64,000 nucleotides of DNA, taken from assembly GCA_029210695.1 (NCBI GenBank), contig JARGFH010000008.1:1-64000 (forward strand), read 5' to 3'. Below the pieces are notes generated by a model. That model worked only from the letters and a program-made list of their open reading frames with translations. It was not told the origin of the DNA and did not search any database. Shown piece after piece: positions 28,035 through 30,899 of this stretch. The translations under genes were made by a program, and so were the position numbers. The DNA is from Acidimicrobiia bacterium. Lineage in GTDB: Bacteria > Actinomycetota > Acidimicrobiia > Spongiisociales > JAHEDJ01. Each line of letters starts with the position of its first letter. Position 1 is the first letter of the stretch.

Positions 28035-28844
28035 GTGAAGGTCTCAATCGTCGACCCGGCCGACCCGCGGATTCTCGACTACATAGGGCTACGCGATCAT
28101 CAACTGCGGCGGCAGCGGGAGGCGTCCGGAGGCGACCTGGCCGGCGTGTTCATCGCCGAAGGGGCCCTCGTCGTCGAGCGAGCCCTCCTCGCCGGCTACC
28201 GGCTCAAGTCGCTGCTTATCGACGCTACCCGGGGTGAGCCGATCCCGGCGATGGTCCCTGCCGACGTTCCCCACTACTTCGCGGGTCCGGACGTCGTACT
28301 CGAGGTCACGGGCATCCACCTGCATCGAGGCCTCATCTCCGTGTTCTACCGCAAACAGCTTCCATACCCGGAGGAGGTGCTGGCGGCGGCGCGCCGCGTC
28401 GTTGTACTCGAGAACGTGACGAACCCGACCAACCTCGGAGTCATTGTTCGGGCGGCCGCCGGCCTCGGGTTGGATGGACTGCTCCTGGACCCGAGGAGCT
28501 GTGATCCCCTTTATCGGAGGGCACTCCGGGTGGCGATGGGAGAAGCTTTCGCCCTCCCGCATGCGCGGATCAACAGGTTGCCGATGGGGCTCGATCCGGT
28601 CCGTAGAGCAGGGTTCCGGATCGCGGCGCTGACACCGGATGCGTCGGCCATCCCGATTGACCAGCTCGTGATCGAGGCGGATGAGAAGCTCGCCGTCGTG
28701 CTCGGCGCAGAGGGGCCGGGACTCACGGAAGAGACACTGGCGGCGGTCGACGATCGGGTGAGGATTCCGATGCAGAACGGGGTTGATTCGCTCAACGTGG
28801 GGTCGGCAGCCGCGGTGGCTTTTTACGCTCTGACGCGGCGCTGA
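28035..28844 (+). CDS. TrmH/SpoU family RNA methyltransferase
   Basis: NLGVIVR, LGAEGPGL and DSLNV motifs. Confidence 0.92.
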   Translation: MKVSIVDPADPRILDYIGLRDHQLRRQREASGGDLAGVFIAEGALVVERALLAGYRLKSLLIDATRGEPIPAMVPADVPHYFAGPDVVLEVTGIHLHRGLISVFYRKQLPYPEEVLAAARRVVVLENVTNPTNLGVIVRAAAGLGLDGLLLDPRSCDPLYRRALRVAMGEAFALPHARINRLPMGLDPVRRAGFRIAALTPDASAIPIDQLVIEADEKLAVVLGAEGPGLTEETLAAVDDRVRIPMQNGVDSLNVGSAAAVAFYALTRR

Positions 28845-28878
28845 AAGCTCTGCCCTTCCCGTTTTCGGAGGGCGGACT

Positions 28879-29103
28879 TCAGCGGATCTGGTCGGCGATC
28901 TCCTCGTACTCCGCGTGGCGTCCCGTCGCCTTCTTCGAGTAGATGAGCTTCCCATCAACGACAACTTCGAACACGCCTCCGCGCGAGGGGATCAGCGTGG
29001 CGGCCTGTATCCCTTCCTCGAACTCGGTCAGTATTTGCTCGACCATGCGAACCGCACGGTCAAGATACTTTCATTGCGCGCAGTACTCGATGCTGATGAT
29101 CAT
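28879..29103 (-). CDS. SelW/SelT/SelH (Rdx family) selenoprotein, 74 aa, CxxU with in-frame TGA (not in the ORF track)
   Basis: GGAGG RBS. Reads MIISIEYCAQ(U)KYLDRAVRMVEQILTEFEEGIQAATLIPSRGGVFEVVVDGKLIYSKKATGRHAEYEEIADQIR*, with Rdx hallmarks IEYCxxU and GGVFEV..DG..IYSK. TGA at 29073-29071. Confidence 0.9.
29038..29064 (-). promoter_or_regulatory. Putative bacterial SECIS hairpin
   Basis: Starts 6 nt after the UGA: CUUGACC-GUGCG-GUU-CGCAU-GGUCGAG, a 12-bp stem with a G-containing apical loop. Confidence 0.7.
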
Positions 29104-29123
29104 GCGACCTCCTGGCGGCGAGC

Positions 29124-30899
29124 CTAGCTGCAGGAAACCTCACGCATCCCTGGTTGCCCGGATGGGAGGGTGAGACGGAAGACCGCTTCCCCGTGTTCTT
29201 CGTCGAAGTCGTAGACCAGATCTCCTGCCATTAGTTTGGCCAGCCGTCGAGACACGGCAAGTCCCAGACCCACCGAAGCGGTAACGCCGGGCTGGTTGTG
29301 CGCCCGTGCGTACGGTTCGAAGATCCGCTCGCGGTCTTCGTCCGGGATTCCCGGGCCATCATCGCGCACTTCGATGGTGACCACGTCCCCGTCGTGCCTG
29401 CCGACGATGCGCCGGCTCTTCCCCCCGTAGCGGTGTGCATTGGCGATGAGGTTTCGAACGATCTGGCGGAACCGGACCGGATCGGCGAGCACCTCGCAGT
29501 CGCCGGACGGCCGTGTGATCGAGTTGTCCCATCCGAACTCTGTGACGATTCGATCGACGTTTTCTGCGACGTTGATTCGCTCGGGGGCGATGCTGATCTG
29601 GTTGATGTCGGCACGGGCCGCAACGAGCAGGTCTTCAACGATGAACGCCATCTCGCGCGATTGGCCGGCAATGAGTTCGAGCAATTCGGCCCGTTCCGAA
29701 TCAGAGAACACCATATGTCCATGGGCGAGCTCGCCGGCCAGGCCGACCACGGCCGTAAGGGGGGTGCGCAATTCGTGGCTCACAGAGGCGATGAACTCGT
29801 CCTTCGAGCGGATCAGTTCGGCCATCCCGCCGCGGACGCGCATCTCTTCCGTGATGTCGTGGATGGCAATCACCAGCCGGTCGGGATTCGGCCGGAGGCG
29901 GAGTGGTCGAATCCATCGCACTTCGATCCAGATCTGGTCACCGTTGAACGTCACCGTTTCGTAGGTGCACTCGAAGGTCAGCCTGCCTTCGACCATCGCC
30001 ACTACCTCGGAGACCAGGGCCTCGATGGATGTCTCGTTCACCCTGGTGGTTGACATGGGGCCAACCAACGCGGCCGGATCGTCGAGCCCGAGTAGCTCGG
30101 CGGCCGCAGCATTCACGCGCACGTAGACGATTCCGGCCGCGAGATCGGTCACCACGGCCGGGTGGGCGAGGAGGTACTTCCCCAGTTCCTGCGGGTCATT
30201 GATGCCCAGGTTCTCCACCGCTCGCAATGTCGCGCCCCAGTCCTGTTCCAGCAGCGCAACAGGGCTGTCTTCAAAGAGCCGGACGTACCGGCTGGCCGAT
30301 ACCAATGTCGCCATCCTGACGGACAGCATGATGAGAGCCACCAAGCCAAATCCGGTGACGATGGTGGCGGCGGTGGCCACCCTCGCAGCCCCGTCCTCCA
30401 CCCATAGGAAACCGGCCAGCACGAGCACGGCACCTACCCCGATCACATACGCGAGACGCCCTGTGTCGACGAACAGCAGACCAATGCCGCCGATGATGAC
30501 CAACGCCAAAGATGCCGGCAGCAGCGTGGCGTCGGTGCCGACGAGGGGGTAAGTGATCACGACCGAGACGAGCGACAGGATCAAACTCAGGACAACCTTC
30601 CGGCCGCCGGACCAGGCCTGCCAGCCGAAGAGCGCCGCCACGATTGCCGGCGTTATCGATTCCAAGAGCTGATCGGTACTTCCCGTGAAGAGGCCGGATG
30701 CGAAGATTACCAAAGCGGTCAAGGCCGATGCGATGGCCCCCATCCGCATCATCGTCAATCGAACGGTGACGATTGCCTCGTGGAAGACGTCGGTCTCCTC
30801 GGGGTCGTTCGTGACGAGTGCCCGGAGGGTCTGACGGGTGGCGCTCAGAGGGCTGTCGGGCCTGGAGAACCGGCCTGAATCCGGTCGACGGTTGCTCAC
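29124..30899 (-). CDS. Membrane PAS-domain sensor histidine kinase
   Basis: TM N-terminus; LFEDSPV..VNAAA..IHDITE PAS; VSHELRTPLT, NLIANA, DDGPG and GLGL motifs. Confidence 0.92.
   Translation of the reverse strand: MSNRRPDSGRFSRPDSPLSATRQTLRALVTNDPEETDVFHEAIVTVRLTMMRMGAIASALTALVIFASGLFTGSTDQLLESITPAIVAALFGWQAWSGGRKVVLSLILSLVSVVITYPLVGTDATLLPASLALVIIGGIGLLFVDTGRLAYVIGVGAVLVLAGFLWVEDGAARVATAATIVTGFGLVALIMLSVRMATLVSASRYVRLFEDSPVALLEQDWGATLRAVENLGINDPQELGKYLLAHPAVVTDLAAGIVYVRVNAAAAELLGLDDPAALVGPMSTTRVNETSIEALVSEVVAMVEGRLTFECTYETVTFNGDQIWIEVRWIRPLRLRPNPDRLVIAIHDITEEMRVRGGMAELIRSKDEFIASVSHELRTPLTAVVGLAGELAHGHMVFSDSERAELLELIAGQSREMAFIVEDLLVAARADINQISIAPERINVAENVDRIVTEFGWDNSITRPSGDCEVLADPVRFRQIVRNLIANAHRYGGKSRRIVGRHDGDVVTIEVRDDGPGIPDEDRERIFEPYARAHNQPGVTASVGLGLAVSRRLAKLMAGDLVYDFDEEHGEAVFRLTLPSGQPGMREVSCS

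Follow-up and report, generated by a model that had tools for sequence, protein, structure and literature searches.

In eukaryotes the SECIS element lies in the 3' UTR and uses SBP2 and eEFSec, whereas the corresponding bacterial hairpin is found inside the coding region. The reference SelB-binding SECIS of bacteria, that of Escherichia coli fdhF, follows directly on the UGA within the reading frame and carries an essential G-U in its apical loop at about +23/+24. Small selenoproteins resembling SelW have been catalogued among the bacterial selenoprotein families (PMC1088965, PMC1794560, PMC2398784). In PMC1794560, SelW-like is listed among 25 families, with very few Cys homologues, and its Sec form is regarded as the original one. 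According to PMC2398784, no selenoprotein was more widespread in the marine GOS metagenomes than SelW-like (motif CxxU) and SelD, and 427 Sec forms of SelW-like were counted there against 56 Cys homologues.

Gene, family and predicted fold

Analysis of the window, that is the whole stretch of 64,000 nucleotides under study, revealed a minus-strand reading frame which is interrupted by a single TGA and lies between a SpoU/TrmH-family methylase gene and a histidine kinase gene. The coordinates of all features are collected in Table 1. The first-pass annotation had described a 74-codon minus-strand frame with TGA as codon 11 in the context IEY-C-A-Q-TGA, with the sequences GGVFEV and DGKLIYSK after the TGA and with a GGAGG ribosome-binding site; each of these elements is present in the nucleotide sequence, the last as part of AGGAGG. 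Read from 29103 to 28879, the frame consists of an ATG (29103..29101), nine codons, the internal TGA, 63 codons and a terminal TGA. The read-through product opens with MIISIEYCAQ-U-KYLDRAV and reads in full MIISIEYCAQ-U-KYLDRAVRMVEQILTEFEEGIQAATLIPSRGGVFEVVVDGKLIYSKKATGRHAEYEEIADQIR. We are highly confident that the locus is functional and encodes a SelW-like selenoprotein of the Rdx family, with 74 residues and a predicted thioredoxin-like fold, and we infer that its UGA is read as Sec; the internal TGA almost certainly encodes selenocysteine.

Table 1. Coordinates and properties of the features at the SelW-like locus and of the Sec machinery genes in the same genome (positions refer to the window unless a contig is named)
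Feature	Position	Strand	Remarks
SelW-like (Rdx family) gene, very probably a selenoprotein gene	28879..29103	-	74 sense codons + stop TGA 28881..28879
UGA codon 11, almost certainly selenocysteine	29071..29073	-	second position of C-A-Q-U redox motif; context I-E-Y-C-A-Q-TGA
Shine-Dalgarno AGGAGG	29108..29113	-	4 nt before ATG; present in 6/24 orthologues
SECIS-type hairpin, as folded in this genome	29038..29064	-	12-bp stem, GUU loop, starts 6 nt after UGA
Conserved SECIS core	29042..29060	-	6-7 bp stem CCGUGC/GCAUGG, 5-nt loop N-G-U-N-N; RNAalifold consensus
-10-like hexamer TAGGCT, possible promoter	29121..29126	-	17 nt before ATG, overlaps kinase stop TAG
Hairpin spanning and following the real stop codon, probable terminator	28836..28884	-	-22.8 kcal/mol, z -2.61; loop without GU
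SpoU/TrmH-family methylase	28035..28844	+	convergent with SelW-like gene
HisKA+HATPase_c histidine kinase	29124..30899	-	same strand, upstream; stop TAG 29126..29124
tRNA-Sec	C66		73.3 bits (gathering 47); ARAGORN: SeC, anticodon tca
selA	C160		433.8 bits
selB	C160, adjoining selA		298.2 bits + C-terminal part, one 626-aa frame
selD (locus L018)	G000:C94:13659-14588	-	398.6 bits

Profile searches with the read-through product, in which Cys stood in for Sec, gave matches well above the cut-offs both to Pfam PF10262 (Rdx; E 1.3e-22, 80.2 bits, cut-off 22.6) and to NCBIfam TIGR02174 (CXXU_selWTH; 64.0 bits against 34.2), in agreement with the family proposed earlier. The PF10262 alignment spans residues 3-74 on profile positions 2-73 of 74 and thus runs across the TGA. 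The cut-off of 88 of the equivalog NF041051 (SelTWH_Campy) was not reached (84.3 bits), and the protein is therefore filed under the broader subfamily only. A profile constructed from the orthologues found the solved bacterial SelW-related proteins 2fa8 (3.5e-18), 3dex, 2p0g, 2oka, 2obk and 2ojl, with E values from 3.5e-18 to 4.9e-11, and also matched MIEN1 (2ljk) and mouse SelW (2npb).

The structure predicted by AlphaFold2 from 26 aligned sequences (pLDDT 96.6) has the order E2-8, H14-31, E34-40, E45-49, E52-56, H66-73. In this model the motif C8-A-Q-U11, the CxxU of residues 8-11, is part of the loop that joins strand 2-8 to helix 14-31, and the 26 aligned sequences show no variation at C8 or at position 11. 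Foldseek comparison of the predicted model gave a TM of 0.94 and an rmsd of 0.9 to 2fa8, while thioredoxins ranked lower, with a TM of about 0.57. The HMM scores, the CxxC/CxxU motif and the thioredoxin-like fold, the last as predicted only, place the protein in the Rdx / SelT-SelW-SelH family. By analogy with thioredoxin-fold oxidoreductases, a protein with the motif C-A-Q-U would most likely be a small thiol/selenol oxidoreductase, which may cycle between a selenolate/thiol and a selenenylsulfide state.

Conservation and annotation of the in-frame TGA

Orthologues were searched for in 41 genomes, namely the window's own and 40 relatives of its genus and order. They were found in 24 of these genomes with 45-89% identity, each with exactly one in-frame TGA, and in all 24 the motif C-x-x-TGA falls at the same aligned column with a start codon 10-11 codons upstream of the TGA. 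In the public genome collection, the best 80 of 127 confirmed relatives likewise all carry C-x-x-TGA (80/80). These 80 are labelled as Actinomycetota/Acidimicrobiia, Anaerolineae, Verrucomicrobiota, Planctomycetota, Gemmatimonadota, Desulfuromonadales and others. The closest relatives of the window that bear a name are MAGs of Acidimicrobiia/Actinomycetota. The position of the TGA was checked residue by residue for the 24 and the 80 fetched loci.

Conservation at the protein level is found on both sides of the codon. Residues 1-19 are conserved in 24/24 orthologues, and between the TGA and the internal Met residue Y13 is invariant while R16, A17 and V18 are kept in at least 90% of the sequences. 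Alignment with CxxC homologues showed that the TGA column coincides with the second Cys of P0060 and P0105 (both CAPC), of 2fa8 (CTQC) and of L043. As expected of a selenoprotein gene, the in-frame UGA is thus aligned with the redox Cys of homologues and conserved among orthologues (24/24 and 80/80). Genome G033 has a second, Cys-form Rdx paralogue (L043, CVPC) beside its Sec form.

Under translation table 11 the ORF list holds only a 55-aa ORF from the internal ATG 29046. The large protein collection returned 295 matches, and among the 120 listed, 113 are 53-67 aa long, cover 68-82% of the query and begin at or near the internal Met; some of these stubs are named 'selenoprotein W-related protein' or 'SelT/SelW/SelH family protein'. 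The seven longer entries among the 120 listed either have G, R, S or W in place of Sec or are genuine Cys forms with CAPC. One of these four residues replaces Sec in the full-length database proteins P0003, P0005, P0010, P0048 and P0074, which may reflect translation with a different code or a genuine substitution. The first-pass annotation had held that ORF callers miss the gene; the gene is cut to a stub of 53-67 aa and not missed. The main value of the analysis lies in annotation: in place of an intergenic gap or a stub of 55 residues, the locus should be recorded as a 74-residue selenoprotein with a transl_except at codon 11. It also adds one more client to the selenoproteome of the organism, which includes a Sec-form SelD.

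It could be argued that the UGA is a true stop, that the product is a 55-residue protein starting at ATG 29046 and that the ten codons upstream are a leader ORF or noise, since table 11 yields exactly this ORF and most database entries of the family (113 of 120 listed) are stubs of this kind. The stubs, however, derive from the same gene-calling rule and are not independent evidence, and a 55-residue protein would be without strand 1 and without the family-defining CxxU/CxxC motif. The alignment of the Rdx HMM across the TGA, the conservation of residues 1-19 and the upstream start at a fixed distance of 10-11 codons in 24/24 orthologues also speak against a true stop. Moreover, the internal Met is replaced by Ala in three of the 24 orthologues (L025, L040 and L042), so that the 55-aa ORF is not a conserved unit. 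Termination at codon 11 is thus very unlikely.

Even less probable is that a Cys codon, TGC or TGT, was mutated or misread to TGA in a pseudogene or through an assembly or sequencing error. A single base separates these codons, and the genome of the window (G000; 3.9 Mb, 97.85% complete) is a draft assembly of 181 contigs; yet the TGA stands at the same place in all 24 orthologues and in all of the best 80 of the 127 wider relatives, and both before and after it the frame is unbroken and conserved. Short contigs (151-191 nt) of three other public runs (X1, X3, X4) cover 29071-29073 without difference, despite the fact that two of these three runs differ at 29069/29070, which changes the next codon to CGG as in the genus relative L020. 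The conserved TGA and frame, together with the contigs of the other runs, exclude sequencing error and pseudogene for practical purposes. Just as improbable is that suppression or a variant code, in place of SelB-mediated Sec insertion, leads to a reading of the UGA as Cys, Trp or Gly. It would find support in the full-length database entries named above with W, G, R or S at this place, but TGA also serves as the ordinary stop of both the SelW-like gene and the neighbouring methylase gene, the Sec machinery is complete with a tRNA of anticodon tca, and a conserved SelB-type hairpin follows the codon. Selenocysteine accordingly remains the preferred reading of codon 11.

Downstream hairpin and selenocysteine machinery

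The Sec machinery that the first-pass annotation had supposed was found in the genome: the genes for tRNA-Sec (selC), selA, selB and selD, as a selenoprotein gene requires, are all present together with the SelW-like gene. The selD gene itself is Sec-containing, an in-frame TGA near its N-terminus giving HGSGUACK.

The stem-loop of 12 bp reported earlier 6 nt downstream of the TGA is real; nucleotides 29064..29053 pair with 29049..29038 and enclose the loop GUU (29052..29050). Folding of 76 nt gave an MFE of -24.6 kcal/mol (z -2.05), and 5/200 shuffles folded as well, so that by itself the fold exceeds chance only modestly. It is conservation, and not the fold of the single sequence, that speaks strongly for a SECIS. 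A gap-free alignment of 48 nt around the TGA in the 24 orthologues yielded an RNAalifold consensus of a 7-bp stem and a 5-nt loop. All 24 sequences form standard pairs at the six core (inner) positions, and all have G at 29052 and U at 29051 of the loop, at +22/+23 from the U of UGA. Bacterial selenoprotein genes carry, shortly after the UGA, a hairpin whose apical loop contains GU, and such a hairpin is found here.

Two of the core pairs have changed in a compensatory way, one by UA>CG (3 sequences) and the other by AU>GC (6 sequences), and one further pair shows a single CG>UA. In the case of UA>CG, a synonymous change in the third position of an Arg codon goes together with Met>Ala on the other arm, a combination that protein-level selection alone is unlikely to have produced. 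The covariation score of the hairpin was reached by 2/500 shuffles. The number of pairs with changes on both sides, six, was reached by 170/500 shuffles and is not above the controls, and a slide by -1 gave a higher covariation score (0.200 against 0.161), though with only 38% of cells paired. The full 12-bp stem is paired in 71% of cells overall, its lower 4-5 pairs being kept only in the genus of the window, and conservation of the stem is confounded with that of the strongly conserved R-A-V-x-M codons. A scan of 28600..29400 against Rfam at E<=10 returned four chance-level matches, none at gathering score and none to a SECIS family.

Two SECIS registers were distinguished among the relatives. 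In the Acidimicrobiia-type clade the GU lies at +22/+23, on the Val codon of R-A-V, while most other phyla examined and some Actinomycetota MAGs have a GCCGYC/GRCGGC stem and an RGUYU loop with the GU at +26/+27. This survey was made with a crude hairpin finder (loop <=9 nt) that reports sub-optimal stems and was used for the position of the GU loop and for the energy contrast, not as a SECIS predictor; with it, GU was found in the reported loop of 64/80 relatives, and the energy was -8.5 kcal/mol compared with -1.9 kcal/mol for mononucleotide shuffles.

From what is established for bacterial Sec decoding, the course of translation can be proposed as follows. The ribosome would start at ATG 29103. 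As UGA codon 11 moves into the A site, SelB-GTP-Sec-tRNASec would bind the apical loop N-G-U-N-N of the hairpin that lies 15-31 nt further downstream. SelB would then deliver selenocysteine in place of termination. The second UGA, at 28881, is without such an element at the right distance and would terminate translation.

Genomic context, spread and comparison with described systems

The SelW-like gene starts 21 nt after the stop of the kinase gene. The flanking genes had been labelled trmH and PAS kinase; analysis of their products upheld a SpoU/TrmH-family methylase and a histidine kinase, and a scan of 492 residues at E<=1e-5 gave no PAS domain. The synteny with trmH and the kinase is kept only in the genus, both genes occurring in L020 and L022 and trmH only in L021 and L023. 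A Pfam scan of the longest flanking frames of the 24 loci (48 frames) revealed Amidohydro_3 as the sole recurrence, in L027, L032, L033 and L038, and 17/48 frames were without a Pfam family. Conserved neighbours were rejected as a functional lead on the grounds that synteny is confined to the genus and that only Amidohydro_3 recurs (4/24 loci).

Upstream of the gene, the hexamer TAGGCT is a possible promoter of its own, judged by its sequence. When 45 nt upstream were examined, 18 of the 24 orthologues (L024-L031, L033-L042) showed a TANNNT box 6-10 nt before the start and no Shine-Dalgarno sequence, and these 18 look leaderless. The six orthologues with a Shine-Dalgarno sequence are the five rows of genus g1, the window's own included, and L032; they have a similar box about 17 nt upstream. 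A consensus scan of 28600..29400 found no promoter-like site and one terminator-like site, inside the kinase gene on the other strand. The hairpin at the end of the gene is probably a terminator that separates the SelW-like gene from the methylase gene convergent with it. That the terminal TGA is also read through was considered and rejected: the extension is not conserved, other orthologues stop elsewhere or have different tails, and the hairpin downstream has no GU in its loop. Among the public runs, none of RNA was found to contain the stretch, and the best DNA run shared 0.22 of words.

Hairpin register and start region may be read jointly. We suggest, tentatively and as a reading that is rather more apt to fail than to hold, that the Acidimicrobiia branch has its own minimal SECIS together with a leaderless mRNA in most families of the order. 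The minimal SECIS would consist of a 6-7 bp stem and an N-G-U-N-N loop set in the invariant R-A-V-x-M codons, and compared with other phyla its distance from the UGA would be shorter by 4 nt. On the putative leaderless messages, a 70S ribosome would start at the extreme 5' end, with the UGA only 30 nt and the SECIS about 45 nt away. If both parts are true, these genes would be a compact natural model for SelB recruitment on a leaderless message and would suggest a lineage-specific co-evolution of SelB and SECIS.

The distribution of the gene in the phylum was surveyed in an even sample of 301 genomes, 77 of which match the orthologue profile. By hand tally, the 83 match rows include 64 genomes with a one-TGA row, 18 rows without a stop and one row with TAG; in this survey the placement of the TGA was inspected only for the genomes also among the 24. 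The selA gene was found in 207/301 genomes, and again by hand tally in 60 of the 64 TGA-form genomes compared with 3/13 genomes with only non-TGA matches. The four TGA-form genomes in which selA was not found (G144, G266, G093 and G209) are draft assemblies with a completeness of 69-98%; a tRNA-Sec scoring 80.7 bits is present in G144, and G266, G093 and G209 gave no tRNA-Sec above the cut-off. Unpublished genomes enter the tallies as G041 and G086 (TGA-form match and selA) and as G126 and G157 (selA only), and no other claim rests on them. The locus had first been thought notable on the supposition that Sec is patchily distributed in actinobacteria. With selA in 207/301 genomes and a TGA-bearing SelW-like match in 64/301, this supposition did not hold; within the phylum as sampled here, Sec use is common rather than rare.

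Comparison with the described systems places the locus among them. Relative to the fdhF SECIS of E. coli, the hairpin of the window is conserved over a stem of only 6-7 bp, has no evident bulged U and presents its GU at +22/+23. The solved Cys-form bacterial homologues Atu0228 (2fa8), SAV_2001 (3dex), 2p0g, 2oka, 2obk and 2ojl resemble the predicted model in fold (TM 0.85-0.94) and have their CxxC where the window protein has CxxU; they differ in carrying Cys and not Sec, are about 100 aa long as deposited, and bear the words 'hypothetical' or 'putative' in their entry titles. Mouse SelW (2npb) and MIEN1 (2ljk) also belong to the Rdx family and have a thioredoxin-like fold with the CxxU motif in the same loop, but their relationship to the window protein is distant (E 2e-07, TM 0.74, 22% identity). 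With the bacterial CxxU SelW-like selenoproteins the window protein shares the HMM family, the CxxU motif, the size and the arrangement of a UGA followed by a downstream hairpin. Bacterial SelW-like selenoproteins are already known and very common, and the present locus is an ordinary one among them, in which nothing essential differs.
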